64,000 nt of DNA from Simkaniaceae bacterium (GCA_040880145.1 JBBDIZ010000024.1:12423-76422); one strand, 5' to 3'. Shown: positions 16,253-60,709, counted from the first letter of the stretch. Translations and numbers: made by a program. Notes: generated from the letters alone by a model not told the origin.

Positions 16253-16288
16253 TATATCGAAACCAATTCTTGAAATTTTTTCGGTATA
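16253..16288 (+). repeat. dispersed hairpin repeat unit (TATATCGAAA...TTTCGGTATA)
   Basis: 10-bp stem with one G-U pair around CCAATTCTTGAAATTT. It is homologous to the units at 20201, 24121, 42527 and 60547. Confidence 0.75.
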
Positions 16289-16345
16289 ATTCTTTACAAA
16301 AAAGCAACAAAACATTAAAATATATAATACAAACAAGGTGTTATT

Positions 16346-16891
16346 TTGATTAATGATATATCAGTAAACAATAATTATGTTGATAGCGATTATGATTTTA
16401 ATGAAGAGGATTATGATTTTAATGGTATGGAAGATAGTTCTGCCTCACCTCTTCATAAAGAGGATAGTTTATTTGACAAGGGTTTAGAAAAATTATTAGG
16501 TCTATTGAAAAAAATATTCAATATTTTTAAAATAATTTTTATAGATCCGTTTACAAGTTGCTGTACTCCAAATGACGATATAGTAGAGCTGAAAGGGGCA
16601 ACTCCAGGAGTTGGTGATCAAGACGTTCTAAATGTAAGGATTATTAATAATAAAGTATTTCTAAATGCTGATTTTTATTATTTTTTTGACTCTGAAATTA
16701 AGAAAGCTAATGATTTCAAGGATGTTATTAATAAACATTTGAATGATTTTTTGAGCAAATCCTTAAATTTGGAAAAGGTTGTCATTATAAAAGAGGCTTC
16801 TACTTATTTGCTCAGGTTCTCTTTTGAAGAAGAAGACGCTCAATCCCCCGAAGAGTTTTCTTACCCTCAGAATTTAGAAAAAACTTTCTAG
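16346..16891 (+). CDS. hypothetical AT-rich orphan protein (TTG start)
   Basis: 181-aa ORF with AAGGTG 6 nt upstream of the TTG. The N-terminus is acidic with a DYDFN duplication. No recognisable domain. Confidence 0.4.
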   Translation: MINDISVNNNYVDSDYDFNEEDYDFNGMEDSSASPLHKEDSLFDKGLEKLLGLLKKIFNIFKIIFIDPFTSCCTPNDDIVELKGATPGVGDQDVLNVRIINNKVFLNADFYYFFDSEIKKANDFKDVINKHLNDFLSKSLNLEKVVIIKEASTYLLRFSFEEEDAQSPEEFSYPQNLEKTF

Positions 16892-16948
16892 AAATCTGGA
16901 GAAAAAAACGAGCCTAATATACTATCGGCACGACTTTTTTATTAAGGT

Positions 16949-17734
16949 GTGTCAATGGTTCGGTTTTGCCCATTAGCATCGGGGTCAAAAGGAAATGCGA
17001 TTTTTCTTTCGACTGAGAAAACAAAAATACTCTTCGATTGCGGATTAAGCGCTAAGCAGCTAGAAGTTCGTTTAAATTCCATAGGGGAATCGCTTTCAGA
17101 AATAGAAGCTATTCTCATTAGTCATGAGCACACCGATCATATTCGAGCGGTAGAGATCGTAAGCAAGCAGTATCAAATTCCGATACTTGCAAATTCTGAA
17201 ACGGCTAAAGCCATTCTTGCCCAGGTCAGAGTCGAGCCTCTTTTTAAGATTTTTTCGACAGGGGAGACGTTTCACTTCAAAGACTTGGAAATTCATCCCT
17301 TTAGTATTCAGCACGACACCTTAGATCCTGTCGCTTTTACTGTTAAAACCTGTGGTTATAAAATTGGCATTTGTACAGACCTTGGATTTGCAACCTCTCT
17401 TGTTGAAAATCATCTTCGAGGCTGTGACGTTCTCTACTTGGAATCAAACCATGAGCCTTCAATGGTACACGCTTCAGCAAGGCCCATGGTCTATAAGCAA
17501 AGGGTGCTGGGGCGCCAGGGTCATCTATCTAATGAAGCTGCAGCAGAGCTGCTTCAAAAAGTAGCGCATGAGAAACTTTTAAAGGTTTATTTAGCTCATT
17601 TATCTGAAGAGTGCAACCATCCTGAAGTGGCTCTTAAAAAAGCAAAAGAAGCTTTAAGTAAAGCAGAGATTTCTGTTGAAATTGCCCATCAGGTAAAATG
17701 TAGTTCGTTACTGGAACTGTTTCTTAGAGTTTAA
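16949..17734 (+). CDS. MBL-fold metallo-hydrolase, YycJ/WalJ-like
   Basis: 261 aa with the HEHTDH (HxHxDH) motif and an N-terminal SGSKGN. Size and layout match stand-alone YycJ-type MBL proteins. Confidence 0.7.
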   Translation: MSMVRFCPLASGSKGNAIFLSTEKTKILFDCGLSAKQLEVRLNSIGESLSEIEAILISHEHTDHIRAVEIVSKQYQIPILANSETAKAILAQVRVEPLFKIFSTGETFHFKDLEIHPFSIQHDTLDPVAFTVKTCGYKIGICTDLGFATSLVENHLRGCDVLYLESNHEPSMVHASARPMVYKQRVLGRQGHLSNEAAAELLQKVAHEKLLKVYLAHLSEECNHPEVALKKAKEALSKAEISVEIAHQVKCSSLLELFLRV

Positions 17735-19065
17735 AGGGGAAGCGTTAAGCCATCATAGGCAAGTCTGACTTGAGTCATAAGATGACAATCATGAAGAATA
17801 TCGAGATGGAGTTGAACTTTGACTTGGAGGTCACTATCTGAGTGTTGAGGATCGTGGTGGGTGACCACCCAATCATGACAGTGAGTTGCATTGATAAGGG
17901 CGGTTGCATTCGAAATCGAACTATGACCCCAACCGACTTTTTTCTGATACTCTTCCGGAAAATATTGCGCCTCATGAATCAATAAGTCGCAGTCTTTTAA
18001 AAATGAAATCAAGCTTTGGTGAGGCTCTAAAAGAGGGTGATTTTTTCCGATATCGCCTGGATGGCCATGATAGCCAAGGAGCATCTCGTTATCTGTAACG
18101 TAGCCAATCGTATGATGGGGTGAGCGTATTTTAAAGCAAAGGGTGTGGCCTGGGTGGTAAGTGTAGTGAGTTTCTAAAACAAGATTGCCGATCTTGATAT
18201 GATCGCCATCTCTTAATTCTTTGAATTCAAATTCTGCTTGCATGTCATCTAGACGAACAGGAAAAAAGGCATGAGCGAGCATTTCAGAAAAAATCTCCTT
18301 TGGAGCTCGATCAAAGCCAACGGGCGCCCAAATATTGATCTTGCAACCCTTACGATAAATCGGAGCAAAGAAGGGGAATCCCGTGATATGATCCCAGTGC
18401 GTATGTCCTATAAAGAGATTGATTTCATTTTCATTCGTTAGCATTTCACCAAGAGGACGAATTCCTGTTCCGGCATCGATGATTAAAAGGTCTTTCCCGT
18501 AACGAACTTCTAAGCAGCAGGTATTTCCTCCGTAGCGTACATATTTCGGTCCGGCCACTGGATTGCTGCCCCGGGTTCCCCAAAAGCGGATATAGGAAGT
18601 CGCAATTGTCGGTGTTGGGTTGTAAAAAGTCTTATTTTCAGGAAGATCCGGCATTTTTTCAACAAAGGGAGCCGCATTAAGATTTCCTTGAAAGTAAGAC
18701 TCAACGATTAGAAAGAATTCATCAGCTGAGAAAGGCTTCTCTAAAAAATAAGTCGTGCCCCTATCCATAGCTGCGCGATAATTTTGAATCATTGTCTGAG
18801 ATGAGGTGATGATTACCCCAATTTCCTCAAAGCCCTTTTCCTTTCTCATATGACCGAGGATTTCAATTCCATGCATCTTAGGTAGCATCAATTCAACAAT
18901 AATGAGTTCAGGCTTGAAGCTGTGGAGACGTTTCAGGGTTTCAGGCCCATCAGAGGTCATTTCAATTGCATAATCACTAAAGCGCTGATCACTTTTTAGC
19001 AAGCGACGAGTTTGGGGTGAGGGATCTGCTATGAGTAGGCGTTTAGGCTCCATAGGCCTACTCAT
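17731..19065 (-). CDS. atypical response-regulator receiver domain fused to an MBL-fold hydrolase domain
   Basis: 444 aa. Residues ~8-125 are CheY-like (LLIADPS, IIVELMLPKMHG, VIITSS, LEKPF) with Glu where the phospho-acceptor Asp is expected. The C-terminal half carries GHTHWDH. Confidence 0.75.
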   Translation of the reverse strand: MSRPMEPKRLLIADPSPQTRRLLKSDQRFSDYAIEMTSDGPETLKRLHSFKPELIIVELMLPKMHGIEILGHMRKEKGFEEIGVIITSSQTMIQNYRAAMDRGTTYFLEKPFSADEFFLIVESYFQGNLNAAPFVEKMPDLPENKTFYNPTPTIATSYIRFWGTRGSNPVAGPKYVRYGGNTCCLEVRYGKDLLIIDAGTGIRPLGEMLTNENEINLFIGHTHWDHITGFPFFAPIYRKGCKINIWAPVGFDRAPKEIFSEMLAHAFFPVRLDDMQAEFEFKELRDGDHIKIGNLVLETHYTYHPGHTLCFKIRSPHHTIGYVTDNEMLLGYHGHPGDIGKNHPLLEPHQSLISFLKDCDLLIHEAQYFPEEYQKKVGWGHSSISNATALINATHCHDWVVTHHDPQHSDSDLQVKVQLHLDILHDCHLMTQVRLAYDGLTLPL

Positions 19066-19101
19066 AGCGAAAACAGACTTTCGAATCTACTCTTTTACGA
19101 G

Positions 19102-20142
19102 TTAATTTTCACTATCCGAATAGAAATAAGAAGGAGAGAGGTCTTGAGAGTAGGAAGTGACTTTGAATCCCTTATCTGTTTTTTTCATTTCAGAAACGCA
19201 TTCTATATCAATATAATTATGCCTATCTATAATCAGCTTATAGTTGTTATAAGATAAATAAAAATATATTCTATTTGTATAGATTGCAGTAATCTGATTT
19301 TTATCAGTAGTTATTATTGCATCTCCAGAGCCTTGATGTGTAGGCAGTAAGTATGTACTATTGTTCTTTTGCTTATCCATAAATTTAGCTAATAATAGAC
19401 CTTGAAAGTTGCCTATAAGGCGATTTGGAATGATTTGCGAGGCCAAAAACTGTACAGGAAGGAGTTTTTCTTCTGAGTTGTCTAATTCTTTTTTTAAATT
19501 TTCGAGTTCACTCTCAATTGATTGAAAGGGGGCTAATGAGTTATTATTTATTGAAACTTGAAATTTTCTTTCTCGATCACTTTTATAATCGTTAAGATAG
19601 GGAAGTGAATTATTGGATTTCTTTTGATTTTTCTTTAATTTAGAAGTGTATCCTTCGTTTATTTCTTCTATAATTTTTTGATTATCATCATGCTTCTTTA
19701 GGAAATTACCGGCCTTATTAGGTGCTATATTAAAAATGAGATCATTTATTAATTCTTTATTCTGGTAAAAAAGAGTATATAAGTCCCTTGACAGGTCTTT
19801 AAATGAAAAAGAATCGTCAAATTTGAGAGTCTCATCAATAGGCTGATCCCTTTTTTCTAATGCAATTTTATTTTCTAATTCATTTTTATAAATTGATTGA
19901 ATTAGCTTTTCTAGGGAATTTTTCTCTGTATAAATTTTAGTTTTTTCTAGGAATGCTAAAGCGATATCAAATAAAAACCGAATTACCGAATATTTAACAA
20001 ATTTATAAGTTTCAATTTCACCATAGGTATTAAGTCCCTTAATATAGCGGACTTGCTTTTGGGATTCGAGATGATCAAGCAATGAGCCGAAGCTATCACT
20101 ATTGTTAAGAAGGTCTATTACATTCATAAATATTATACTCAT
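19102..20142 (-). CDS. hypothetical AT-rich orphan protein
   Basis: 346-aa ORF, Asn/Lys/Ile-rich, with no recognisable motif. It is preceded by a repeat unit homologous to the one upstream of 16346. Confidence 0.45.
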   Translation of the reverse strand: MSIIFMNVIDLLNNSDSFGSLLDHLESQKQVRYIKGLNTYGEIETYKFVKYSVIRFLFDIALAFLEKTKIYTEKNSLEKLIQSIYKNELENKIALEKRDQPIDETLKFDDSFSFKDLSRDLYTLFYQNKELINDLIFNIAPNKAGNFLKKHDDNQKIIEEINEGYTSKLKKNQKKSNNSLPYLNDYKSDRERKFQVSINNNSLAPFQSIESELENLKKELDNSEEKLLPVQFLASQIIPNRLIGNFQGLLLAKFMDKQKNNSTYLLPTHQGSGDAIITTDKNQITAIYTNRIYFYLSYNNYKLIIDRHNYIDIECVSEMKKTDKGFKVTSYSQDLSPSYFYSDSEN

Positions 20143-20200
20143 TTTAACTTTAATATATATTAATTATATGTGAAATATTAATTTTAGTAAAGGAAGAATT

Positions 20201-20235
20201 ACACCGAAACAACTTCAAGAATCAATTTTGGTATA
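20201..20235 (-). repeat. dispersed hairpin repeat unit (minus orientation)
   Basis: The minus strand reads TATACCAAAATTGATTCTTGAAGTTGTTTCGGTGT and aligns along its full length with 16253-16288. Confidence 0.75.
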
Positions 20236-20237
20236 AA

Positions 20238-22598
20238 TCAATCAAAATCAAAGGCTTGTGGAGAGTCTATAAGGACTTTTCTTGGGCGGCTTCCTTCTTG
20301 GGGGCCTATAATTCCTTGCGATTCAAGCTCGTCGATTAACGCGGCGGCTCTTGGGTACCCAAGTTTGAGCTTTCTTTGGAGGTAGGAGGTTGAGATTTTT
20401 TTGCTATGAATAGCGATTTCAATGGCTTTTTCAAAGAGTGGGTCTCGGTTGTCATCTGAGGTTCCTCCGCAATTTGTAAGCTCTTCACGGCTCATGTTAT
20501 CGAAGGATTTAATGAGGTAGTTTGGGGAGGCTTGATTGCAGATGTAGTTGATGACTCTATGGATATCCTCGTCTCGTATATAAACGCCTTGTGCACGAGT
20601 CAGCTGCGAGGTACCGGGGGGAAGAAAGAGCATGTCGCCATTTCCAAGGAGGGTTTCAGCGCCATTTTCATCGAGAATAATTTGGCTGTTGACGCGGCTT
20701 GCGACTTTAAAAGCAATTCGTGTCGGAAAGTTTGCTTTGATGAGGCCTGTAATGACCTCTCGTGAAGGCCTTTGTGTTGCTAAGATAAGGTGGATGCCGA
20801 CAGCTCTTGCCATTTGTGCAATACGGGCAATGGGTGTTTCTAAGTCTGAGCTTGAGGTCATCATAAGATCGGCAAATTCATCGATAATGGCAACGATTTT
20901 TACCATTTTCTCTGGTATAGAAATGTCTAAAGCGTCCTCTAACTCTTGGTTGATCTTGCGGCTATTGAAAGCTGTGATATTACGCATCTGCAGCGCTTTT
21001 AGAATTTCGTAGCGGTGCTGCATCTCTTGAACAAGCCAGCTTAAGGCTGCGTAGGCGCCGTGAGCTTCAGTGATCACGGGAGCAACAAGGTGGGGCAGGG
21101 CTGAATAGGGGGTAAGCTCAACTTTTTTCGGGTCGATTAAGATGAGTTTGGTCTCATCGGGGTGCGCATTCATGAGAAGGGACATGATGATGGTATTGAT
21201 GCAGACCGACTTGCCCGAGCCTGTAGCGCCTGCAATGATTGCATGGGGCCATTTGACAAGGTCGCACATGACATCATCGCCACTGACGGTTTTTCCAAGG
21301 AGTATGGGGATATTAAATTGCCGGGGGTTTTTCTTATAGCGAGTGAGCATCTCCTTGAAGCCAACCTCTTGGGGGTGTCTTGAGGGAATCTCGACGCCTA
21401 CAGCGGCTTTTCCGGGTATGGGGGCGATGATGCGAATAGAGGGGGCTTGTAGATTGAGGGCGATGTCGTTTTCAAGAGTGGTGATTTTTTGAACTTTAAC
21501 CCCGACAGCCGGGTGAACTTCAAAAGAGGTGATGGTGGGGCCGCAGTTGATTTCTCCCACATGCGCTTCGATGCCAAAACTTGCTAAAGTCTCTTCTAAG
21601 ACGCGGGATTGGTCTTGCAGATCTTTTTTGTAGGTTGGGGCATCGATAAGTTTATTAGATGAAGAGAGGAGGTTGATGGGAGGAAGTTTATAATTTTTGT
21701 AGGCGCTTTTAAACGAAGCTTTTCGTTCAGTTGGAATATCTCCTGCAAGCTCGGGCCTTTTTTTCTTATTGTTGATTAGAAGCTCAGGCAGTGGAGAGCT
21801 GATTGAAGGTTTTGACGGGGCAAGTATTGGGGGAGGAGCCTTCTCTAAAAAGCGTTCATATTTAGGTTCAAAAGCGGCTTTTTTCAGTTCTTTTGGGGGC
21901 AAGGCGGCGAGGGGGGGCTTTTTTTTCTTGATTCCCCAGTCGATGTTTGGCCAGTTGCAGTTTTTGGCTAAACGTTTGCTAAACCCTATAATGGCAAGTG
22001 AAACTTTTTTTGTTCCCCGAATGACATCGAGAATTTTGATCTCTGCAAGCAGAATAAAACTCATAATAGAGGTCATGGAAAAGGTGAGAAAGACTCCCAC
22101 ATTACTCAATACTTTCTGCAGGCTGTAGCGTGGAATGTCGTGGAAGAGAAAGTAGGTGGGAATGCCTCCGAGGTTATAGCGAGTCGCTTGACTAAAAAAA
22201 GGAGACTTTAGAGTCAGTTTTTGACTTACAACGCGCTCTTTAAAAAAGGAGTAGTCCATAGAGTGTGTTTCTGCAAAGAGATTCAACAAAAAGGAGAGGG
22301 AGAGGATGAGAGAAAAAAAGTAGGTTACCTTAAAGGGGAGGTGAGGAAGTTTTCCGGAAACTAGGAGCTTCCATCCCATAAAGAAAAGAAGACCCACAAC
22401 GAGATAGGAAGTGATGCCAAAGCAGTAATTGAATAGAAAGCCAATACCATGGCCGATAAGTCCTAGCCAATTTTTTTCATGCTCGCCGTCTATAAAACTT
22501 AAGAGTGCTAAGAGCACGGTCATTGACAGTGCTAAAAAAAGCAGGCCTTTTGCTTCCGGATGGGTTGGAGATTCTGACTTATTCTTCTTCACACCCAT
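20238..22598 (-). CDS. ftsK: DNA translocase FtsK
   Basis: 786 aa with N-terminal TM helices, a Pro-rich linker, a motor domain with Walker A GATGSGKSV, and a C-terminal gamma-like winged helix. Confidence 0.9.
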   Translation of the reverse strand: MGVKKNKSESPTHPEAKGLLFLALSMTVLLALLSFIDGEHEKNWLGLIGHGIGFLFNYCFGITSYLVVGLLFFMGWKLLVSGKLPHLPFKVTYFFSLILSLSFLLNLFAETHSMDYSFFKERVVSQKLTLKSPFFSQATRYNLGGIPTYFLFHDIPRYSLQKVLSNVGVFLTFSMTSIMSFILLAEIKILDVIRGTKKVSLAIIGFSKRLAKNCNWPNIDWGIKKKKPPLAALPPKELKKAAFEPKYERFLEKAPPPILAPSKPSISSPLPELLINNKKKRPELAGDIPTERKASFKSAYKNYKLPPINLLSSSNKLIDAPTYKKDLQDQSRVLEETLASFGIEAHVGEINCGPTITSFEVHPAVGVKVQKITTLENDIALNLQAPSIRIIAPIPGKAAVGVEIPSRHPQEVGFKEMLTRYKKNPRQFNIPILLGKTVSGDDVMCDLVKWPHAIIAGATGSGKSVCINTIIMSLLMNAHPDETKLILIDPKKVELTPYSALPHLVAPVITEAHGAYAALSWLVQEMQHRYEILKALQMRNITAFNSRKINQELEDALDISIPEKMVKIVAIIDEFADLMMTSSSDLETPIARIAQMARAVGIHLILATQRPSREVITGLIKANFPTRIAFKVASRVNSQIILDENGAETLLGNGDMLFLPPGTSQLTRAQGVYIRDEDIHRVINYICNQASPNYLIKSFDNMSREELTNCGGTSDDNRDPLFEKAIEIAIHSKKISTSYLQRKLKLGYPRAAALIDELESQGIIGPQEGSRPRKVLIDSPQAFDFD

Positions 22599-22709: not shown

Positions 22710-24083
22710 ATAAAAAAATGAGTCCTTATTTTCTAATAAATGGGTGATTTTCGTCAAGGCGATTGGGATAAAAAAGAAGAAAAGAAGCCAAGGCAGGGGA
22801 AGAGATTTTACATAGAGGAGAAAGGAATAAGCGGTTGGTGCATAGGTGACCGTTCGGATTAAAAAAAGTGTATAAAGCTCGGTTAGAGGCATTAGGAAAG
22901 GAAAGAGAAGGGAAAGGAGCACAAAAAAAAGGGAGATTGTCACCCCGAATGGATAAAAGAGATTATAAAAAAAGCTTAAAAGGGGATAGCGCCCAAAGAC
23001 ATGAAGAAGAAGAGGGAGGGTAAAGAAATTGACAGCAAATGATAAAGCTACTGCATTTCGAATCAATCCGGCGAGGAGGTAGATGTGTTTTTCGATAAAT
23101 GAGAGGGAGAGAGCCTCTTTGCGTTTTCTTTTGGGTAAACATCTCCAAAGCGCCTTGTCGATAGGAGCTGTTAAAGTGATAAGGCCAAAAGTTGCAAGAT
23201 AGCTGAGCTGAAAGCCGAGGGAGAGAAGGTTGAGGGGGTTGATGAGAAAAGAGAGGATAAAGGCGATAGATAGCGCATTTAAAGCGCTGCACTTTCGGCT
23301 GATCATTCGACCGGATAAAGGAATTAAAAGCGCGATCCAGGCGCGCGTAATTGAGGCAGTGGGACCAATATAAATAAAGAAAAGAGTGAGTAAAACCATC
23401 ATGGAAAAGGCAGAAGAGCGAAGAGGAAAAAAACGGGAGAGAAAAAAAGTTAAAAAGAGGGAAAGCATGGCAAAATGAAAGCCGGAAATAGCAAGAATAT
23501 GGCTTTGGGCAAGCCTGTCAAATTCGTATTTTAATGAACGCTCTTCTAAATCACCCGTTAGCAGCGTTGCAAAAAAAAGGTAGGTTTTTTTCTTTTTCAC
23601 TCGTTTTCTTAAAAACTTACGGAGTTTATTTTTCAATCGATAACGTTTTCCGGTAAATCTTGAGCTTTTTAAAGCGGCTGTCCATTTTGTGGGTTTAAAA
23701 AGGGAGAAATTTGGGCTTTTTTGAATAAGTGTTCCTTCTAAAAGATAATCTGTATCCGCGTTTGGGTGTTTTCCGTAAAGAGGGCGGAAGATATGGCAAG
23801 GTAAATTTTTGTACTCGTTGATGCCATCACTGAATTTGATGATTGTCCCGGTATATTGAGTTCTCCATCCAAAACTCGCTTGTGTCTTTTTTAATACTTT
23901 GGGGTGAAAATAGGCTGTTCCTATTTGAGCATCTGATATTTTCGGGGGGAGGCTGAAGTGGACGTAATAAAAGCTCACGGTCATTAAGATGATTAAGGGT
24001 AGGGAGCGGTTTTGTAAAAAGAAAAGCAGTGCGAAGGGGAGTGTAATGAGTCCAATACAAGAGAACAGAGCTCCAAAAAGCAT
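22686..24083 (-). CDS. comEC: ComEC/Rec2-family competence channel protein (start moved to MLFGAL)
   Basis: Polytopic membrane protein with the ComEC core LAISGFHFAMLS. The first 32 codons of the track ORF are encoded by an intergenic repeat. The 3' end overlaps tRNA-His by 24 nt. Confidence 0.75.
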   Translation of the reverse strand: MLFGALFSCIGLITLPFALLFFLQNRSLPLIILMTVSFYYVHFSLPPKISDAQIGTAYFHPKVLKKTQASFGWRTQYTGTIIKFSDGINEYKNLPCHIFRPLYGKHPNADTDYLLEGTLIQKSPNFSLFKPTKWTAALKSSRFTGKRYRLKNKLRKFLRKRVKKKKTYLFFATLLTGDLEERSLKYEFDRLAQSHILAISGFHFAMLSLFLTFFLSRFFPLRSSAFSMMVLLTLFFIYIGPTASITRAWIALLIPLSGRMISRKCSALNALSIAFILSFLINPLNLLSLGFQLSYLATFGLITLTAPIDKALWRCLPKRKRKEALSLSFIEKHIYLLAGLIRNAVALSFAVNFFTLPLLLHVFGRYPLLSFFYNLFYPFGVTISLFFVLLSLLFPFLMPLTELYTLFLIRTVTYAPTAYSFLLYVKSLPLPWLLFFFFIPIALTKITHLLENKDSFFYGDRSSVG

Positions 24084-24120
24084 GGAAAGAGCGTAGTCAA
24101 AAGCGGGAGCATCTTTATAT

Positions 24121-24176
24121 TCAAGAATCGGTTTTGCTAGCTGCGAAAATCCAATTCTTGAGGTTGTTTCGGTATA
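24121..24176. repeat. dispersed repeat, 56-bp inverted pair
   Basis: TCAAGAATCGGTTTTGC / GCGAAAATCCAATTCTTGA arms, with the right arm extending to GTTGTTTCGGTATA. Confidence 0.7.
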
Positions 24177-24203
24177 CATAGCAAAGAAGATGCAAACAAA
24201 ATC

Positions 24204-25573: not shown

Positions 25574-26422
25574 TTAAGCATTTTTAATTCTTTCGAGAAA
25601 ATCAGCTTTTTCTACAGAGTCTTGTGGTAAGAATTTAATAAGGTTAGAAGTCATATCCCATTTTTCTTCTATAATATAGAAGTCAATCAACTCAATCATA
25701 ATATTTTCTTTTAAAAACTTGTCGTCTATTTTGTTTAAGAATGAACATATCACAATTAGTTTGTCAAAATATTTAATTTTATTAATAAACTTTATTGAAT
25801 TTTTATTTACGATCTTTTGATCGGTAATATTAGATATCGCACAAAAAGCAGTGATATGAATATTTTCGAATTCTAATTTGGTTAAATTATTAAATTCTGA
25901 ATCGTTAATTTTTATTACAATTCTATAGAAAAGGTTAGAGATGATTTTTTCTTTATAAATGTGATTGGAATTCATTAATTTTTTTTTAATAGAATTTGCA
26001 ATATTTAGGGCTGAAGAAAATTCTTTTTTTCTTAAAAAATTCGAGAATCTTGCCTCAAGTAAGCGAATATCTTGAATAGGCGCAGGGTTAGGGTCTTGAA
26101 TAAGGACTGGGTTAGGGTCTTGAATAGGTGCAGGGTTAGGGTCTTGAACAGGCGCAGGGTTAGGGTCTTGAATAGGCGCAGGGTTAGGGTCTTGAATAGG
26201 CGCAGGGTTAGGATCGTGAATAGGGGCGGGATCTAGAGGACAACAAAATTTGAAAAAAACCTCCATTAGAAACATGACGATAAGAAAAAGAGGAATAATG
26301 ATGATAAGTAGGGGCGAGAGGAGGAAATAAACGAGGATGTGCACGGTCTTGAGAACGCATGATTCCTCATTAGGAATAAGAAAGTTAATTGTTTTAATAG
26401 TATAGGGTGCAATTGTTTCCAT
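25574..26422 (-). CDS. hypothetical Inc-like membrane protein with seven PAPIQDPN repeats
   Basis: 282 aa. The N-terminal ~40-aa hydrophobic block is VHILVYFLLSPLLIIIIPLFLIVMFLMEVFF, followed by a Pro-rich 8-aa tandem repeat and an AT-rich Asn/Ile/Lys C-terminal domain. Confidence 0.55.
   Translation of the reverse strand: METIAPYTIKTINFLIPNEESCVLKTVHILVYFLLSPLLIIIIPLFLIVMFLMEVFFKFCCPLDPAPIHDPNPAPIQDPNPAPIQDPNPAPVQDPNPAPIQDPNPVLIQDPNPAPIQDIRLLEARFSNFLRKKEFSSALNIANSIKKKLMNSNHIYKEKIISNLFYRIVIKINDSEFNNLTKLEFENIHITAFCAISNITDQKIVNKNSIKFINKIKYFDKLIVICSFLNKIDDKFLKENIMIELIDFYIIEEKWDMTSNLIKFLPQDSVEKADFLERIKNA
26070..26237. repeat. 24-bp tandem repeat, 7 units (last degenerate), in frame
   Basis: Units of tcttgaataggcgcagggttaggg start at 26070, 26094, 26118, 26142, 26166, 26190 and 26214. 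Confidence 0.9.
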
Positions 26423-26544
26423 TGGATCTAATTATATCATGTACTTTAATAATTCTATATCAATAAAATAATGATTTGTCGTTTATAGGGGTTTTTTAAA
26501 AAAGGTAGCGAAAATATCGCTCTTTTCGGTAGTTTGGTGGCCGT

Positions 26545-27542: not shown

Positions 27543-29210
27543 ATGGTTCAAACTGATCGGGAAATCGTTATTAAAGGGGTCCCTGTAAGTACAGGTATGA
27601 CTATCGGTACACTCTTTTTCATCCCCCCAAATAGTTATGAACTTCCTATTTTTTCATTAAATTCAAGTCAGGTAGAAAATGAAATTCAGCGCTTTCGATC
27701 CGCCATTGATCAAACCCGTAAAGATCTGCTCTCATTAAAAAATTATCTTATTTCTGAAGGGCACAGAGATGCTGCAACCATTATTCAGTCGCACTTGCAA
27801 CTTCTAAGCGACCCTTTTTTAACAACTTTTGTTGAAGAGCAGGTGCTAGAGAAATTACAAAATGTGGAGAGCATTTATGATGCCGTGATTTCAAATTACG
27901 AGGGCATTTTTTCAAAAGTGAAGGATCATTTCTTTCGTGAGCGCTTTTTGGATGTAAAAGATCTCTCCTATCGCGTCCTCCGCCACTTGCTGCCAAAAGC
28001 CTCTCATCCTTTTTCAAAACTTCCCAAAAATGCAGTTATTTTTGCACAAGAGCTCGTCCCCTCTGATACGGCAGAGGCGTCTCATCATAGTGTCGCAGGG
28101 TTTGTTACATTGATGGGGGGACAAACTTCTCATGCTGCACTGATTGCAAGGGCAAAGGGAATCCCCTATATCTCCAGCGTCGATGTGACTCGCTTTAAGG
28201 AGTTTCATTTAGCCCAGGTTTTGCTCGATGCCACAGCGGGAGAGATTGTCATTTGTCCAAGTCAAAAAAGATGTCAAACTTACCGATCGACTCTTTCGAA
28301 TACGCTTCAGGCTAAAGCTCCAATTTCTTTTTCTCCACTCAAAACCCTGGATCATATCGAAGTGGATCTTTTAGCGAATATCGAATCTGAATCGGATCTT
28401 CCCCTTGTAAAAAATAGCGGCACCAAAGGCGTTGGTCTTTTTAGGACGGAATTTCTGTTTCCCTTCCACGAAATTTATCGGATCTCCCAAGATGATCAAG
28501 AGAGGGTTTATACTCAAATTGTTCAATCTTTAGATGGAATACCGGTCGTGTTTCGTCTCTTTGATATTGGTGGAGATAAGGGATTTGGTTTTATAAATAA
28601 AGAGCCCAACCCGGCTCTTGGCTGTCGAGGGATTCGATTTTTACTTAATCATCCCGATATTTTCTCTCGTCAGGTGCGTGCTTTATTGATAGCCTCAGAG
28701 TTTGGTCCTATTAAACTCTTAATTCCTATGGTCACTCATTTCGATGAGCTTCTTCGTGCAAAGTCTTTTATCTTAAGTGAAGCAAAAAAGATGAAACTAG
28801 AGGCTTCTGTTCCTGAAATTGGCGCGATGATTGAAGTTCCCTCAGCAGCTTTAATGAGTGATCGATTAGCTAAAGAGTCTGCGTTCTTCTCAATTGGAAC
28901 AAACGATCTCATTCAATATACTTTAGCAACCGATCGGTTAAATCCTAAATTTTATGAAGAGGCTTCTGAGACGCTGATTAGCGTTTTAAGGTTAATTGAA
29001 ATCATCGTAAAAAATGCGCCTAATATCCCCATTTCTGTCTGCGGAGAGTTAGCGTCTGATCTCAAGTATACCGAAATTTTGCTTGGTCTAGGAATACGGC
29101 AGTTTTCTTGCGCGCCTCCTTTTATTATGAGAATAAGAGAAAAAATTTTGACGCTCTCTTTTGAGAAGGCAGAGGCTCTTTCAAAAGAGAGGCTGAAAAG
29201 AGAAGTTTAG
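27543..29210 (+). CDS. ptsI: phosphoenolpyruvate-protein phosphotransferase (PTS enzyme I)
   Basis: 555 aa with the active-site region GGQTSHAALIARAKGIP and PEP-utilising motifs GTNDLIQYT and SVCGELA. Confidence 0.9.
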   Translation: MVQTDREIVIKGVPVSTGMTIGTLFFIPPNSYELPIFSLNSSQVENEIQRFRSAIDQTRKDLLSLKNYLISEGHRDAATIIQSHLQLLSDPFLTTFVEEQVLEKLQNVESIYDAVISNYEGIFSKVKDHFFRERFLDVKDLSYRVLRHLLPKASHPFSKLPKNAVIFAQELVPSDTAEASHHSVAGFVTLMGGQTSHAALIARAKGIPYISSVDVTRFKEFHLAQVLLDATAGEIVICPSQKRCQTYRSTLSNTLQAKAPISFSPLKTLDHIEVDLLANIESESDLPLVKNSGTKGVGLFRTEFLFPFHEIYRISQDDQERVYTQIVQSLDGIPVVFRLFDIGGDKGFGFINKEPNPALGCRGIRFLLNHPDIFSRQVRALLIASEFGPIKLLIPMVTHFDELLRAKSFILSEAKKMKLEASVPEIGAMIEVPSAALMSDRLAKESAFFSIGTNDLIQYTLATDRLNPKFYEEASETLISVLRLIEIIVKNAPNIPISVCGELASDLKYTEILLGLGIRQFSCAPPFIMRIREKILTLSFEKAEALSKERLKREV

Positions 29211-35724: not shown

Positions 35725-35775
35725 ATATACCGAAAATGATTCAAAATCCCAAATTTTGAATCATTTTCGGTATAT
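35725..35775. repeat. perfect 23-bp inverted repeat with a 5-nt spacer (divergent member of the TTTCGGTATA family)
   Basis: ATATACCGAAAATGATTCAAAAT cccaa ATTTTGAATCATTTTCGGTATAT. It lies between the 35798 gene stop and the pgm-family gene start. Confidence 0.85.
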
Positions 35776-36221: not shown

Positions 36222-36394
36222 CTATAGTCGATTAAATCTTAAATGATAAAAATGGACTCAGCGAGACAAAGCTAAATAAAGCCGCAGGGCATAGGCCGAC
36301 GAAGCCTTGCCCAAGTGGGCGAGATGAGGAGAAGGATCCATTTAGCAAAGTCGTAGCAAGTTCATTTTTATCATTTAAAATTTAATCGACTATA
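36222..36394 (+). mobile_element. MITE-like palindromic element, copy 1 (~173 bp)
   Basis: ~35-bp terminal inverted repeats tatagtcgattaaatcttaaatgataaaaatggac / gttcatttttatcatttaaaatttaatcgactata. There is no ORF. A second copy lies at 38971-39133. Confidence 0.6.
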
Positions 36395-54646: not shown

Positions 54647-54706
54647 AATTCTTTGAATCTTTAATCAGTTTTCTCTTCTCTTTAATCAGTCACTCAAGTA
54701 AGATAT

Positions 54707-56266
54707 TTGTATTATATTATTGGAAAAATGAGCTTTATGGAAGATGAGACCCTCGATATTTTAAAAGAAAAAATTAACGAAAACGACAGTATTGAAGAAA
54801 AAATTAGACTGGTGATCGAGTTTATGAAATCGACCCTTTCCTTCGGTAAAACCCCTCGATTTAAAGATTTCTGGGATGCAAAAAAATTCATACTCACTCT
54901 TTTCAAAGAAAAAATGAATCCTCTCTCTCGAAATCAATTTTGGAAGGAATATACCGATTTGACACTTGAGGCTAAGCGGTTAAAAGAAATTTTGGATGAA
55001 CAGTCCTCTTTTGCAATCGAACAAATTGAACGAGCCATTGATGTCTTAGATGAGGATCTAAAGCAATTTGAAAAAAATATCGGCAAAATAAAGGAAATCG
55101 ACTTTCCTGAAAATGCTTATACGTTGAGGGAGAGTTATTCTGAGTATAGGACGACTCAGAAAGAGTTGGGGTATTTAAATACTTTAGCCTCTCGATTGAA
55201 TGCGCTTCGAAAGGAAGTCATCAATACGGATATGCGCATCCGTTTTAAAAACAAAATTTTACTTAAACTTTCTCATATCGGCGACCAGGTTTTTCCAAAG
55301 CGGAAGGAGTTGATCAAAACTCAAAGTGATCGCTTTATGACAGACGTTGAGTCCTTTATTCAACGCTATTTTATATCTGACAACGACACTTTAAGCGGTC
55401 CTCCTCTTTATGAGCTTCGCGAAGAGATTAAAGCCTTTCAAGAAATGGCTAAAAACTTAACGGTTAACACCCAGGCTTTTCAAGATAGTCGAAAAAAATT
55501 ATCCGGGTGCTGGGATAAGCTAAGAGAGCTCGACAAAGAGCGAAAAAAAGAACACTCTTTGAAAAAAGAAACTTATCAAGAAAACTTTGAAAAAATCTCA
55601 TGCAGACTTAAGGCTTTAAAAGAGCAATCTCAGTCGATTACCTTAGCGCAGCTTCAAGATGAAATTCATGTAATTCTATCTGAAATGAAGGAAATAGAAC
55701 TCTCTCGAGAGAGTGTTAAAAATTTGAAAGACCAACTGTTCTCTATTAAGCGCGAGAAAGAAGACGAAGCCCAAATCTCTAGAAAAAAAATGCAGGAAGA
55801 GGAAGAAACTCGTAAGAAAAATAGAGAAATGGAAATCGCCGCAGCACTTGACAACTGGAGAAAAGAACTTTCTGATGATACGGATATGGAAAAGAGGGCT
55901 CAAGAGTTTGAATTAGCCATACAAGATTTAAATCTTGATGAAGATGAGAGCGTCCCATTTGAATTTTTAAAAGAAGAATTTTCTGATAAATTAGCAGAAC
56001 GCCGTGAATCTATTTTACTTCATGAAGAAGATATTACAGATAACCTTCTGGAGAAACTTGAAGAGGCCCTTCAAAATAGGCTGTCTGAAAGAGAAGCTGT
56101 GAAGAAAAGTTTAGAGAAGCTTCGAAAAGAAGTCGGGGGATCCGGGCTTGATTTTGAAAAGGCTATGGAGTGTCGATCAAGGATTGACGAATTTAAGAGC
56201 CGGCTTCAAAAACTGACTCAGGCTGTTGACAATTTAAAGAAAAAAATAGACGATATAACAGAATGA
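54707..56266 (+). CDS. hypothetical Glu/Lys-rich coiled-coil protein
   Basis: 519-aa ORF with heptad-like charged sequence throughout and no catalytic motif. The true start may be the ATG at 54728. Confidence 0.5.
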   Translation: MYYIIGKMSFMEDETLDILKEKINENDSIEEKIRLVIEFMKSTLSFGKTPRFKDFWDAKKFILTLFKEKMNPLSRNQFWKEYTDLTLEAKRLKEILDEQSSFAIEQIERAIDVLDEDLKQFEKNIGKIKEIDFPENAYTLRESYSEYRTTQKELGYLNTLASRLNALRKEVINTDMRIRFKNKILLKLSHIGDQVFPKRKELIKTQSDRFMTDVESFIQRYFISDNDTLSGPPLYELREEIKAFQEMAKNLTVNTQAFQDSRKKLSGCWDKLRELDKERKKEHSLKKETYQENFEKISCRLKALKEQSQSITLAQLQDEIHVILSEMKEIELSRESVKNLKDQLFSIKREKEDEAQISRKKMQEEEETRKKNREMEIAAALDNWRKELSDDTDMEKRAQEFELAIQDLNLDEDESVPFEFLKEEFSDKLAERRESILLHEEDITDNLLEKLEEALQNRLSEREAVKKSLEKLRKEVGGSGLDFEKAMECRSRIDEFKSRLQKLTQAVDNLKKKIDDITE

Positions 56267-56925
56267 AAACGCCTCAAAAGATAAGTGTTTTTGATCTAGA
56301 TCATACTTTGATCAATGGCAATTGCAGTTCTCTTTTTTTTCTATATTTGATTAAACGCAAAATTCTGCCTCGGCGAGTTCTTTGCTATTACCCGCTTTAT
56401 AAACTCAAATTTCATATTTTTGGCTGGTCGCTGCAAAAACTTCATGAAAGAGTTTTTAGAAAGCTTCTCAAAGGACGTTCATTTATCGATGTGAAGCAAG
56501 CTCTTTGTGATTTTTTGCTTATCAAACTTCCTGATATTTGGAATCATAGCGTCATTGCTTATCTAAAACGTGCGCAGCATCTTGGCCATTATACGGTTAT
56601 TCTTTCGAACTCACCCTCTTTTCTAGTAGAGCCCATTGCAAAACTTCTCAATGTTGATGAGTGCCAAGCAACTGAATATATCGTAGATGAACTTGGTTTT
56701 TTCCAGCGCATTAGTAAGATACTCGATGGGCCTCAAAAGGCCTATTTCATAAAAAAAATTGCGACAAAATTTTCCCTAGGTCGAGGGGATTTAACTGCTT
56801 ATTCAGATAGTTATCACGATATTGCAATGCTCGAGGCTGTTGATCATCCAGTTGCTGTAAATCCGGATAGCAAGCTCCTTCATTTTTCTCAAAAAAAGCA
56901 ATGGAAAGTTCTGTTTCATGCGTAA
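56263..56925 (+). CDS. HAD-superfamily hydrolase (subfamily IB-like)
   Basis: 220 aa with motif I VFDLDHTLI, motif II ILSNSP, and C-terminal acidic motif YSDSYHDIAML. Confidence 0.65.
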   Translation: MKTPQKISVFDLDHTLINGNCSSLFFLYLIKRKILPRRVLCYYPLYKLKFHIFGWSLQKLHERVFRKLLKGRSFIDVKQALCDFLLIKLPDIWNHSVIAYLKRAQHLGHYTVILSNSPSFLVEPIAKLLNVDECQATEYIVDELGFFQRISKILDGPQKAYFIKKIATKFSLGRGDLTAYSDSYHDIAMLEAVDHPVAVNPDSKLLHFSQKKQWKVLFHA

Positions 56926-57490
56926 AATCGGGTTTTTTGGGGGTTCTTTTGATCCCATTCATTTAGGTCATCTCAATGCCATTGTACGCATCAAAGAGCA
57001 TAAAAAGCTCGATCATGTTTATGTCTGCCCCGTTAACTGCTCACCTTATAAAACAGAAAATCCCCCTATTGCAAGCGGAGAAGATCGGTTGAATATGATC
57101 AATATCGCTCTTCATGGTCTAGAGGGAGTCTCTTCTTTAGATATTGAATTAAAACGGGAGGGACCTTCCTACACGTTTGATTCAATCAAGGAATTGATTG
57201 GGCGCGAAGGCGCTCACTATTATTTAATCCTTTCTGAAGATACAACTGCGCACTTAGAGGGATGGAAATCTATTGAAGAGCTTCTCTTGATGGCTACCCC
57301 CTTGATTATTCCACGATCTTCCAAAAGCGCAGAATTAAATAAAAAATACATTAATTATTATCATTCTCTTCCCCTAATGGAGATTAGTAGCACAGAGATT
57401 CGCAGTCGACTTAATAAAAGAGTTTATTGTCGCCATCTTTTGATAGATAAAGTCCTGGACTATATATATTCTAAAGATTTATACTTTTAA
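56918..57490 (+). CDS. nadD: nicotinate-nucleotide adenylyltransferase
   Basis: 190 aa with GGSFDPIHLGH (the HxGH nucleotidyltransferase motif) and C-terminal ISSTEIR. Confidence 0.85.
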   Translation: MRKIGFFGGSFDPIHLGHLNAIVRIKEHKKLDHVYVCPVNCSPYKTENPPIASGEDRLNMINIALHGLEGVSSLDIELKREGPSYTFDSIKELIGREGAHYYLILSEDTTAHLEGWKSIEELLLMATPLIIPRSSKSAELNKKYINYYHSLPLMEISSTEIRSRLNKRVYCRHLLIDKVLDYIYSKDLYF

Positions 57491-57524
57491 AACGATACTG
57501 TTAGGAATTATTATATTTTTACCT

Positions 57525-57881
57525 ATGAATGATGAATCAAAAAAACATATAAATGATATGGCTCAACTCATCTATGACAAGAAGGGGAGTAATATCATTG
57601 CAATTGATATCAGCTCGATTTCTTCGTTAACAGATGGCGTTATTTTAGCCGAAGGAACTATTGATCGCCATGTCATTGCACTGGCAAAAAGCATCATCGA
57701 GGAAATGAAAAAAAGAGGACAAAGTCCTCATTATGTCGATGGTTTGCAAAACGGTGACTGGATAATTATTGACTATATGGACTTTATGATTCATATTTTT
57801 ATTCCAAGTTTTAGGGAGCTCTATCAATTAGAGATGCTTTGGTCTGCCGGGGATCTAATGGAGCTTGAAATAAAAACGTAA
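57525..57881 (+). CDS. rsfS: ribosome silencing factor RsfS
   Basis: 118 aa with GDWIIIDYMDFMIHIF, typical of the RsfS/Iojap family. It lies downstream of nadD, as in many bacteria. Confidence 0.8.
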   Translation: MNDESKKHINDMAQLIYDKKGSNIIAIDISSISSLTDGVILAEGTIDRHVIALAKSIIEEMKKRGQSPHYVDGLQNGDWIIIDYMDFMIHIFIPSFRELYQLEMLWSAGDLMELEIKT

Positions 57882-57894
57882 GTTAGGATCTAAT

Positions 57895-59157
57895 ATGGCT
57901 AAAAAGAAACGCGTCGTCGTTACAGGTCTTGGTCTAGTCTCTTGTTTTGGTCAAGATGTCCGCACTTTTTATGAGGCGCTCCTTCAAGGGAAAAGCGGTA
58001 TTGGCCCTATTGAAAGTTTCCCCTGTGAAGATTATCCGACTCGTTTTGCAGGATCTGTTCAGAATTTCAATACCGAAGGGTATCTCGATAAAAAACAAGC
58101 AAGACGGACCGACCCTTGCATCCAGTACACTCTAGTTGCAGGCAAACGTGCTATTGAAGATGCTCAGCTCGATGACGACTCCCTTCAAAAACTTGATCGA
58201 ACACGCTGCGGAGTCTTGGTAGGCTCCGGAATGGGGGGGATGAAGACTTTTGGAGATGGAGTCAACACGGTTTATCAAAAGGGTTTTAACCGCTTAACTC
58301 CCTTTTTTATTCCTTACGTGATCACAAATATGGGCAGTGCCCTTCTCGGAATGGAACTTGGGTTTCAAGGACCGAATTATTCGATATCAACAGCGTGTGC
58401 AACAGCAAATTATGCCATTACTGCAGCAGCGAGGCATATTCAATCGGGTGAAGTTGATTTGATGGTCTGCGGGGGGTCTGAAGCGCCTTTAACTCCCATG
58501 GGAGTTGCAGGTTTTGTGGTCATCAAAGCCTTATCGACACGGAATGATGAATATCAAACGGCTTCGCGCCCTTGGGATAAAACCCGTGACGGCTTTGTCA
58601 TGGGCGAAGGCTCGGGTATTTTAGTGCTGGAGAGCCTTGAGCATGCCTTAGAGCGCGGTGCTCCTATCTACGCAGAGTACCTGGGGGGTGCCTTTTCCTG
58701 TGATGCTTACCATATGACAGCTCCCCGGGAAGATGGTCAAGGCGTGAAATTATGCATCGAGCAGGCTCTTAAAGAGGCTGAAATTGAAAAACACCAGATT
58801 AATTACATCAATGCCCATGCAACCTCAACACCTGTTGGAGATCTTTGCGAAGTTCGGGCTGTTCGAGACGTTTTTTTAGAACACTCAAAGAATATCTCTA
58901 TGAATTCGACAAAATCCATGACAGGGCATTGTCTAGGAGCTGCAGGCGGAATTGAAGCGATTGCAACTGTTATGGCGATCAAAACTTCGAAAATCCACCC
59001 TACGATAAATATCTTGGAACCTGAAGACGAAATCAAAAATTTTGACTATGTTCCAGACGTGGCTAAAGAAAAAAAGATCACAGCAGCTCTTTCTAATTCT
59101 TTTGGGTTTGGCGGGCATAACTCAAGCTTGATCTTTGGCCCTTACACCGGCTTTTGA
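57895..59157 (+). CDS. fabF: 3-oxoacyl-ACP synthase II
   Basis: 420 aa with the active-site Cys region STACATANYAI and His motifs NAHATSTPVGD and GHCLGAAG. Confidence 0.92.
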   Translation: MAKKKRVVVTGLGLVSCFGQDVRTFYEALLQGKSGIGPIESFPCEDYPTRFAGSVQNFNTEGYLDKKQARRTDPCIQYTLVAGKRAIEDAQLDDDSLQKLDRTRCGVLVGSGMGGMKTFGDGVNTVYQKGFNRLTPFFIPYVITNMGSALLGMELGFQGPNYSISTACATANYAITAAARHIQSGEVDLMVCGGSEAPLTPMGVAGFVVIKALSTRNDEYQTASRPWDKTRDGFVMGEGSGILVLESLEHALERGAPIYAEYLGGAFSCDAYHMTAPREDGQGVKLCIEQALKEAEIEKHQINYINAHATSTPVGDLCEVRAVRDVFLEHSKNISMNSTKSMTGHCLGAAGGIEAIATVMAIKTSKIHPTINILEPEDEIKNFDYVPDVAKEKKITAALSNSFGFGGHNSSLIFGPYTGF

Positions 59158-59600
59158 TGAAACAAGAAAAAGTGTTTGGAGTTCTACCTTTAAGAAGCGT
59201 TGATAATAAGTGGCAAATTTTAATCCTCTATCATAAAAATGGTCTTTTTTGGGGATTTCCAAAAGGACATCCGGTCGATGGAGAGCCGCCAAAAAAAACA
59301 GCCGAACGAGAGTTGTTCGAGGAAACTAATCTTGAGATAACTGAGTTTTTCAAGGGGGACCCTTTTCATGGAAGTTATACCTTTAGACGTGAAGGGCTCT
59401 TGATTGAAAAAGAGGTGGTTTTTTTCCCGGCAAAGGTCGAAGGAAAATTGAGTCTTCAGAAAAAGGAAATCATAGAAGCAAAATGGTGTTTTTTTGATGA
59501 AGCCCTTCATACTTTGACATTTCCGGAAGCAAAAAAGGTTTGTCGTGAAATAAACAATCGATTAACATTAGAAACGAATATTTTAGAGGATGAAACATGA
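59154..59600 (+). CDS. NUDIX hydrolase
   Basis: 148 aa with the Nudix box GFPKGHPVDGEPPKKTAERELFEETNL. Confidence 0.8.
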   Translation: MMKQEKVFGVLPLRSVDNKWQILILYHKNGLFWGFPKGHPVDGEPPKKTAERELFEETNLEITEFFKGDPFHGSYTFRREGLLIEKEVVFFPAKVEGKLSLQKKEIIEAKWCFFDEALHTLTFPEAKKVCREINNRLTLETNILEDET

Positions 59601-60169
59601 ACCACTCACTGACTATAAAAAATTATTTAACTAGAAGAATCCCACTTTTAAGAGACACGGCTTTGGTCCTCTTTGCTTCGATTCTAATTTCTTTATCCGG
59701 TTTTATAAAAATTCCACTTGGATTCACTCCTGTTCCATTCGTTATCCAGGTGCAAGTTGTATTATTCGCTTCGCTTCTTCTTGGAAAAAAACGGGGAGCC
59801 TTAGCGACTCTTCTCTTCTTATTTCAAGGTCTTCTTGGCTTTCCCGTTTTTTCCGGGGGAAGTTCAGGATGGACTTACATGCTTGGGGCAACAGGAGGGT
59901 ACTTGTTTGGCTATCTCGTGGCTGCCTATGCAACTCCTGCTCTTTATACTGCATTTCGCCGTAAAAGCTTTTCTGCAGTTTTCTTTTCGTCAGTTTTAGG
60001 GAATTTGATCATTTATACATTCGGAGCGCTTTGGCTATCACGGTTTGTGGGGCTTAACCAAGCGCTGTCTTTAGGTGTTATGCCCTTTATCTTAGGTGAC
60101 TTGGTTAAGATTACCTTAACAACAGGCTTCTACTCAAATCTCAAGGCTATGAAACTTTTCTCATCTTAA
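59597..60169 (+). CDS. bioY: biotin transporter BioY
   Basis: 190-aa membrane protein with PVPFVIQVQ, GFPVFSGG and GGYLFGYLVAAY, typical of BioY. Confidence 0.75.
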   Translation: MNHSLTIKNYLTRRIPLLRDTALVLFASILISLSGFIKIPLGFTPVPFVIQVQVVLFASLLLGKKRGALATLLFLFQGLLGFPVFSGGSSGWTYMLGATGGYLFGYLVAAYATPALYTAFRRKSFSAVFFSSVLGNLIIYTFGALWLSRFVGLNQALSLGVMPFILGDLVKITLTTGFYSNLKAMKLFSS

Positions 60170-60365
60170 GATTGGCGTAATATTGATTATGTTTTTTGTC
60201 CTCTATCACGGGTCCCTGTGTAATGGCTCTTTCAGATAGGGGATGGAGTGAATGAAGTTTAGGGCTTTGAAAATGAATCTTTTTTGCTGTTTTCTTCATG
60301 GCTTCATTTTGAGGTTGAGGCTCTTGAGATCTCTCCACGTGACCGCTGTCGATTCGTCTTACCAT
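60147..60365 (-). CDS. hypothetical small basic protein
   Basis: 72-aa ORF with a strong GGAGGAG Shine-Dalgarno sequence 4 nt upstream of the ATG. No recognisable motif. Its 3' end overlaps the convergent bioY by 23 nt. Confidence 0.35.
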   Translation of the reverse strand: MVRRIDSGHVERSQEPQPQNEAMKKTAKKIHFQSPKLHSLHPLSERAITQGPVIEDKKHNQYYANLKMRKVS

Positions 60366-60546
60366 AATCTCCTCCGATTTAAATGATTTTCACTATCTTT
60401 AAAAATTAAAGTTCTTAAGTCAACGATTTTTTTTCTGCTTAACACGCTCTTTTTCAAGGGTTTTTTCCATAGAGATTTCCTCTCTTATCAGACGAGCAAT
60501 TTTGTGAATTTTATTTTCTAGAGACGTAGGGCTTTCTTCTTTCTCA

Positions 60547-60709
60547 TATACCGAAACATCTTCAAGAATCGGTTTTGTCAGGCGCGAAAGCTTCCGAAAT
60601 TTGCCGGTCATAAATGACCTAATATTAATAATATGAGGTCATTTATGATCGACGAATTGCGGTGCTTTGGCGCCTGACAAAACCCAATTCTTGAAGTTGT
60701 TTCGGTATG
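60547..60709. repeat. 163-bp composite palindrome built from two outward-facing TTTCGGTAT units
   Basis: Arms 60548-60585 and 60670-60708 are reverse complements apart from a few mismatches. The inner perfect 12-bp inverted repeat is CATAAATGACCT (60609-60620) / AGGTCATTTATG (60636-60647). Confidence 0.8.

Follow-up and report, generated by a model that had tools for sequence, protein, structure and literature searches.

A stretch of 64,000 nt from Simkaniaceae bacterium (GCA_040880145.1 JBBDIZ010000024.1:12423-76422; "the window" below means this whole stretch, in its own coordinates) carries a short motif, TTTCGGTATA, that recurs between genes from position 16,253 to position 60,709. The initial annotation, made from the sequence alone, described it as the outer end of a ~30-nt unit that forms hairpins of various sizes, and likened the repeats to REP/BIME-type elements or to operators of some nucleic acid-binding protein. 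The question raised by this locus is whether such a motif marks a regulon or belongs to a mobile element. According to the best reading, it belongs to a new family that resembles MITEs (miniature transposable elements with inverted repeats), targets TA or TATA, and is present in this Simkaniaceae metagenome-assembled genome (MAG) and in other environmental chlamydiae. In particular, the motif likely represents the terminal inverted repeat shared by a family of non-autonomous DNA transposons of these bacteria.

Anatomy of the repeated element

The motif or its complement occurs exactly seven times in 64 kb (16279+, 24167+, 29067-, 35726-, 35765+, 42543+ and 60547-), compared to 0.12 +/- 0.33 occurrences in dinucleotide-preserving shuffles of the window (0/100 shuffles reach seven), which agrees with the roughly 0.1 estimated in the initial annotation. 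The six exact positions given there are all present; the seventh, 29067-29076 on the minus strand, had been overlooked. It lies inside the coding sequence of ptsI and is probably a chance match, not a copy of the family, since its similarity to the element ends at ~11 nt. With at most one mismatch, there are 12 matches on both strands of the window versus 4.1 expected. Arms matching at 9/10 positions are also found at 16253-16262(-) and 20226-20235(+); of the two 9/10 variants reported before, the one at 60700-60709 is correct, while the one at 20201-20210 is shifted by one nucleotide, its true position being 20200-20209. The 30-nt unit, AAAACCNATTCTTGAAGNTGTTTCGGTATA, is found five times with at most three mismatches (16259+, 20200-, 24147+, 60547- and 60680+) against 0 expected, and no shuffle yields any match to it. 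As had been noted, the copies lie between genes: 6/6 family loci fall within the intergenic share of the window, which amounts to just ~7.1% (P ~1e-7).

An exact-pattern scan for the unit, with one genome per species, identified it at 15 loci in five bins, of which two are labelled Chlamydiales or Parachlamydiales, two are unlabelled MAGs (ZJ1.bin9 and binchicken_co200_5), and one is labelled 'Acidobacteria'. Flanks of these 15 loci are either unrelated to the window or just 65-82% identical to it. The last bin, 'Acidobacteria bacterium BOG_genome_mining.12' (loci L003-L007, L010 and L014, CAJCHM01 contigs), has eight repeat loci; its label looks wrong, or the bin mixed, because it holds this many loci of a chlamydial repeat and because L004 is syntenic with the region from groEL to tRNA-Cys of the window.

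In the motif-anchored alignment of all ends, the outer similarity stops abruptly after ...GGTATA in every copy, while the inner similarity reaches ~80 nt in many of them. The consensus end is TATACCGAAACAACTTCAAGAATCGGTTTTGGG, and its first 24 nt are nearly invariant (30 ends, 8 genomes), although the carrier genomes are ~35% divergent in coding DNA. Full-length copies of 163-166 bp are found in the window (60547-60709) and at L005:3363-3526, L006:5062-5227, L015:4449-4611 and L015:4684-4848. A further one, L010:131-566, is interrupted, and becomes exactly 163 bp long when the nested element and one copy of the duplication are removed, and L011:4643-4792, ~150 bp long, is nearly complete, its right end having been lost. 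The copies at L005 and L006, with 87-88% identity from end to end, have the same asymmetric variants of the left and right arms, which indicates that the element is copied as a unit. The subfamilies are lineage-specific, with diagnostic variants in each genome: mostly CCAATTC in the window, CCGATTC in the BOG bin, and CCTATAG in ZJ1.bin9.

Since the full-length near-palindromes of 163-166 bp share both the ends and the sharp boundaries, the ~30-nt unit of the initial annotation, correctly recognized as a repeat, is not itself the element, but the terminal inverted repeat of a non-coding, almost completely palindromic element of ~163 bp. The full-length copy of the window, at 60547-60709, is a near-perfect 163-bp palindrome with terminal inverted repeats of ~30-34 nt, TATACCGAAACATCTTCAAGAATCGGTTTTG ... 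CAAAACCCAATTCTTGAAGTTGTTTCGGTATG, whose terminal arms are 90% complementary over 29 nt. As DNA it forms a 163-nt hairpin (-67.1 kcal/mol, z -18), so that the palindrome reported at this place is fully borne out. The copy occupies the divergent spacer between a small minus-strand open reading frame (ORF; 60147-60365) and aas (60889-63570), is overlapped by only spurious short ORFs of 24-63 aa, and is 71% identical end to end to L005:3363-3526 and L006:5062-5227. The contig of the same organism from Logan (SRR27977663; the start of L028 corresponds to window position 60661) breaks inside the right arm of this palindrome, as is expected of a repeat or palindrome in a short-read assembly.

Insertion sites and the putative mode of spread

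The genes of the window are chlamydial (ftsK, comEC, ndh, pgm, groEL, hprK, ptsI, dnaK, bioY, aas). In the closest relatives, the Aas homologues have 64%, 64% and 56% amino acid identity. The relatives keep the gene order NUDIX-bioY-small ORF-aas-cysS, and no family copy is found in these loci of the three closest ones (~20 kb each), where the spacer upstream of aas has 123-199 nt versus 523 nt in the window, being 320-400 nt shorter. Similarly, the spacer in L004 syntenic with the groEL spacer of the window holds no copy, while L015 has two full copies in the ndh-hprK spacer, where the window lacks any. Copies are thus present or absent at syntenic sites, although the relatives compared are distant; the copies do not occupy orthologous positions, and the syntenic spacers are empty.

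Other MITEs have in turn inserted into copies of the family. A third MITE family (L010:259-522, ends CAGGGCCTTTTAATTAAAA...) is nested in the 163-bp copy of L010 with a clean 9-bp target duplication, CTTTCACGC. A sister family of ~168 bp (TATACCGGCGCTACTTCAAACG..., ends TATACCGGCGCTACTTCAAACGTACCTG) is present in the BOG_genome_mining.12 bin in three copies that are ~94% identical (L003:1475-1641, L004:5730-5897 and L005:1-~170), and shares with the studied family the terminus TATACCG-N5-ACTTCAA. At L004, its insertion point is precisely the TA that terminates a copy of the studied family, with the junctions ...CGGTA-TA-TACCGG...CCGGTA-TA-TGCAG. This fits either a core TACCG...CGGTA with duplication of TA or a core CCG...CGG with duplication of TATA, and proves neither, because TA is palindromic and is part of the end.

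These observations are consistent with a transposase supplied in trans, which would bind both ends and direct insertion into AT-rich intergenic DNA at TA or TATA, so that each junction carries TATA; we infer the class of the transposase, the duplication of TA, and the route of deletion described below. As a short, non-coding, dispersed sequence with terminal inverted repeats that forms a long hairpin, the element agrees with the definition used in practice for bacterial MITEs (PMC3184786, PMC10969869), to which a target-site duplication (here putative) and a related autonomous insertion sequence (IS; here none found in the hits scanned) also belong. The copies are non-coding and span 36-166 bp, well within the usual limit of about 300-400 bp, and their terminal repeats are in the usual range of about 15-30 bp or more. 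The copies are dispersed with sharp common boundaries, at 7 loci in 83 kb of the source organism and at 8 in one other bin.

Several observations weigh against a classical MITE. The nearest relative has 64% amino acid identity (Aas) and its intergenic DNA is unalignable, so no base-exact empty site is available. A duplication longer than the TA/TATA of the end itself is absent from every full-length copy, so the target-site duplication is putative. No autonomous element, coding interior, or second end at IS distance is seen in any of the 18 genome and metagenome hits (among the latter, only L019 is convincing), no transposase is seen by eye in the ORFs adjoining solo ends within loci of 8 kb or less, and the plasmid and viral collections yielded chance matches only or nothing, the matches in viral contigs being inside coding sequence. 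Solo ends and 36-bp forms make up approximately half of all copies, which is more typical of REP/REPIN than of classical MITEs. Finally, the palindromy is kept through the whole interior by 24 compensatory pair changes, while a DDE transposase that reads only the ends needs no conserved palindromy of the interior.

The last point comes from the alignment of six full-length copies from three genomes; as the genomes are few and the copies related, the counts are not to be read as a probability. In this alignment 86.6% of pair cells are standard pairs, and changes on both sides are seen in 24/67 pairs, compared to 11.1 +/- 2.4 in shuffles (0/500 reach 24) and 4-9 in controls with the partner slid. 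Both arms thus change together, which keeps a single-stranded hairpin substrate, processed by a REPIN/RAYT-like or other HUH enzyme, among the rivals. Under such an explanation, the 34-36-nt end would be a REP-like hairpin, the 163-bp inverted doublet would be the mobile form, singlets would be its decayed remnants, and a single-copy HUH/Y1 (RAYT-like) transposase would act on folded single-stranded DNA. The maintained pairing along an element that changes in sequence agrees with this, as do the frequent singlets coexisting with inverted doublets that form long hairpins, the ability of each end to form a small hairpin of its own (CCGAAAC/GTTTTGG or GTTTCGG), and the lack of a DDE-type partner in the hits scanned. 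Still, we consider it unlikely. All ends start with TATACCG... and lack the GTAG or CGTC tag by which the two REP superfamilies are defined (PMC3733652); instead of a stable, usually G+C-rich palindrome of 20-40 nt, the unit is AT-rich and folds at just -1.3 to -5 kcal/mol; and the sharp TATA junctions together with the insertion of the sister family exactly at a terminal TA are just as compatible with a cut-and-paste enzyme that targets TA. No RAYT gene is found in 83 kb of the source genome or in the loci of other carriers (8 kb or less), whole genomes not having been searched.

A bolder variant, which seems slightly less probable still, is a hairpin-dependent replicator of Chlamydiota itself, analogous to REPINs, with a TATA tag in place of GTAG/CGTC, an HUH/Y1-type or other single-strand transposase, and horizontal exchange among distant chlamydiae that share amoebal hosts; it would fit the compensatory pairing along 163 bp and the abundance of singlets.

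Shorter copies, their neighbours, and regulatory alternatives

Besides the full-length copies, the family forms a series of sizes: 97 bp (L008), 73 bp (L029), 56 bp (window 24121), 51 bp (the diverged subfamily, window 35725), 36 bp (window 16253 and 20200; L002:4026-4061; L012:793-828), and solo ends with the inner limit at 24-71 nt. The 73-bp form, L029:2089-2161, belongs to the same organism, lying 7 kb to the left of the window and upstream of znuA. The 36-bp form consists of the left ~11 nt and the right ~25 nt of the full element, with the junction at AAAC, which is present in both arms. The shorter copies and solo ends look like derivatives formed by internal deletion or truncation, and the variable inner limits of solo ends are those expected for truncations. 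Given the known instability of long palindromes, copies may lose internal sequence by deletion; the 36-bp form would arise repeatedly through slippage between AAAC microhomologies at the hairpin base, and solo ends through truncation. Such decay would account for the composition of the window, with one full copy, forms of 73, 56, 51 and 36 bp nearby or within it, and single ends. Alternatively, the 36-mer itself may be mobile.

The two 36-bp copies of the window were initially described as short hairpins. The units are there, but both hairpins are imperfect and of low stability, one folding at -5.0 kcal/mol (z -2.2) and the other at -1.3 kcal/mol (z -0.1). The first, 16253-16288 (TATATCGAAAC-CAATTCTTGAAATT-TTTTCGGTATA), is situated in a divergent spacer, with a promoter-like site (TTTACA-17-TAAAAT, score 10/12) 5 nt downstream of it, at 16293-16321(+). 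The second, 20200-20235, has the canonical end on the minus strand (AAAATTGATTCTTGAAGTTGTTTCGGTGTA) and lies 2 nt past the ftsK stop codon; on the minus strand, it is followed after 9 nt by another promoter-like site, 20191-20163(-) (TTTACT-17-TATAAT, score 10/12). Each of the two sites is 58 nt from the next ORF start, and the adjacent copies are regarded as putative insertions into AT-rich promoter-proximal DNA.

An internally deleted doublet occupies 24117-24176 (56-60 bp), the inverted pair reported at 24121-24176 being present there with the right end, AAATCCAATTCTTGAGGTTGTTTCGGTATA, intact and the left arm short of ~10 terminal nucleotides. It is located between the NDH-2 stop codon (24204) and comEC, and overlaps the first ~20 codons of the longest comEC ORF. 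This ORF starts with ATG at 24179, followed at once by TATACCGAAAC, so that its first ~20 codons would be element sequence; an alternative in-frame ATG is found at 24083, ahead of the apparent first membrane helix.

Two loci have diverged ends, which match the family in the terminal 10-11 nt and at roughly 19/24 end positions; they were set apart as a divergent subfamily from the start, and we also take them, with less certainty, for a related one, judging by this shared sequence. One is a perfect 51-bp palindrome at 35725-35775 (TATACCGAAAATGATTCAAAAT / 5-nt loop), 69 nt upstream of the phosphoglucomutase start codon, whose 23-bp stem with a 5-nt spacer is confirmed by folding (-22 kcal/mol, z -11) and which has no relatives in the other loci compared. 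The other is a solo end at 42527-42552(+) (AAATTTTGAGCAATCGTTTCGGTATA), between the groEL start and the stop codon of a methyltransferase gene; folding of this single unit yields no hairpin. The weaker relative proposed at 26506-26531, a small hairpin with TTTTCGGTA upstream of hprK (-6.4 kcal/mol), is a doubtful member, as it shares only an 8-mer (1.9 expected by chance) and is not detected by the hidden Markov model of the family, so that its membership is unsupported.

The position of these copies bears on the idea that they are operators. According to it, a DNA-binding protein of chlamydiae would recognize the conserved 24-30 nt as an operator or UP-like element and so control the genes downstream. 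The near-invariance of the end among strongly diverged genomes could reflect such a constraint, every copy in the window lies in a spacer containing a gene start, and the 36-bp copies precede the two best-placed sigma-70-like sites. Yet regulatory sites are expected to be conserved in orthologous promoters with a fixed geometry of half-sites, while here the copies are non-orthologous and the syntenic spacers of relatives are empty, the arms stand 14 to ~141 nt apart, truncated ends occur, and copies harbour nested insertions of other MITEs. Moreover, the neighbours are functionally unrelated (an unknown ORF, comEC, pgm, groEL, aas, znuA), the 163-bp copy contains no promoter-like site, and a -10 box with a score of >=4/6 is found at promoter distance from the internal TTGAAG in 3% of 29 ends versus 13.5% in the background. 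The operator suggested in the initial annotation is thus very unlikely. A related candidate, a sigma-factor promoter composed of TTGAAG and TATA, was rejected, as the spacing is 9 nt instead of 16-18 and the flanks of 29 ends show no enrichment of -10 boxes.

Even less credible is an explanation by transcribed RNA hairpins acting as terminators, stabilizers of mRNA 3'-ends, or small RNAs. The long forms are indeed very stable, four copies of the window lie 1-27 nt past the stop codon of the upstream gene, and the covariation supports a hairpin in some single-stranded form. Nevertheless, as was already recognized, these are not simple terminators: the terminator scan made no call on any copy, including the interior of the 163-bp one, and the flanks, read directly, show no T-run. 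At the gathering threshold, Rfam 15 identifies just two tRNAs in the window, the 163-bp copy yielding sub-threshold miRNA-hairpin noise. Solo ends and 36-mers have no significant fold, and copies also occur in divergent spacers, where transcripts do not end. Effects of this kind would in any case follow from insertion, leaving the spread of the family unexplained. DNA-uptake sequences seem unlikely as well, as the density of copies is too low and the conserved unit has 24-34 nt and belongs to an element with defined boundaries.

The window contains other repeats. A second, unrelated palindromic MITE-like family is represented by two intergenic 172-bp copies in the opposite orientation (36223-36394 and 38972-39143; 90% identical), with ends of ~48 nt (TATAGTCGATTAAATCTTAAATGATAAAAATGGACT...) that stop sharply at TATA; it was seen in none of the other loci compared. 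The first 17 nt of one arm (copy at 36223-36394) match the Neisseria Correia repeat, tatagtggattaaattt..., at 16/17 positions (PMC5039591). A large inverted repeat at 732-1113, with 83-nt arms (81% complementary) and runs of GGGCAA/GGGCAG hexamers, separates def (213-746) from the 3' end of dnaK (1148-3064, minus strand). Two repeats are located within ORFs: seven tandem 24-nt units (TCTTGAATAGGCGCAGGGTTAGGG) at 26070-26237, probably encoding an 8-residue repeat, in the ORF 25574-26422(-), which has no Pfam match, and a 50-nt direct repeat (5159-5208 and 5225-5274; 90% identical, spaced 66 nt) inside the ORF 4877-5359(-).

Significance and comparison with known systems

Reading the motif as the end of a MITE accounts for seven or more intergenic motifs as selfish DNA and guards against taking them for a regulon. 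The element is ordinary in kind, a new example, from an environmental chlamydia, of a common sort of selfish DNA. Expansions of IS elements have been documented in chlamydiae (PMC9723776, PMC13229535), and no description of MITEs in Chlamydiota, or of the studied motif, was found in the searchable literature. That the ends are nearly the same in genomes so different in their coding DNA suggests either that a transposase has long been shared or that chlamydiae exchange the element horizontally. Such repeats can interrupt short-read assemblies, and they might be used to tell strains apart. In analogy to Correia and ERIC elements, the copies may also affect how neighbouring genes are expressed or how stable their mRNAs are.

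Several known families share the general plan but not the sequence. The RPEs of Rickettsia, the QMITE of Coxiella and the MITE of Cardinium are, like the studied family, palindromic selfish elements of about 100-170 bp with a patchy distribution among lineages of obligate intracellular hosts, without any sequence similarity to it; RPEs are characteristically found in frame within protein genes, whereas the studied family is intergenic, with the 5' end of comEC as a possible exception. ERIC/IRU of Enterobacteriaceae, about 127 bp in length, is an intergenic imperfect palindrome that carries terminal inverted repeats and is flanked, as in the studied family, by a TA motif at each terminus (PMC3184786), but its sequence is unrelated and its hosts are different. 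The likeness to REP/BIME proposed in the initial annotation, and to REPIN, holds for the dispersed, selfish intergenic palindromes, occurring as singlets and inverted doublets with compensatory changes that keep the hairpin; it fails for the GTAG/CGTC tag and the stably folding unit, in place of which there are an AT-rich, barely folding unit and a doublet of ~163 bp with a conserved interior.

In design, the closest system seems to be the Correia elements (CREE/NEMIS) of Neisseria (PMC5039591, PMC3184786, PMC10969869). They differ from the studied family in the host phylum and in the sequence of the end, TATAGTGGATTAA... against TATACCGAAAC..., unrelated beyond TATA; of the 26-bp Correia inverted repeat, tatagtggattaa(c/a)a... 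(PMC5039591), the studied family has TATA only, and, unlike in Correia elements, an internal sigma-70 promoter is not detected in it. In both cases no cognate transposase has been found. Both are non-coding elements of about 100-160 bp with terminal inverted repeats of ~26-30 nt starting with TATA; each exists in longer and shorter forms, and both are mostly intergenic, often 5' of genes, and form long hairpins. For Correia elements, a TA target duplication was reportedly described by Buisine et al. in 2002.

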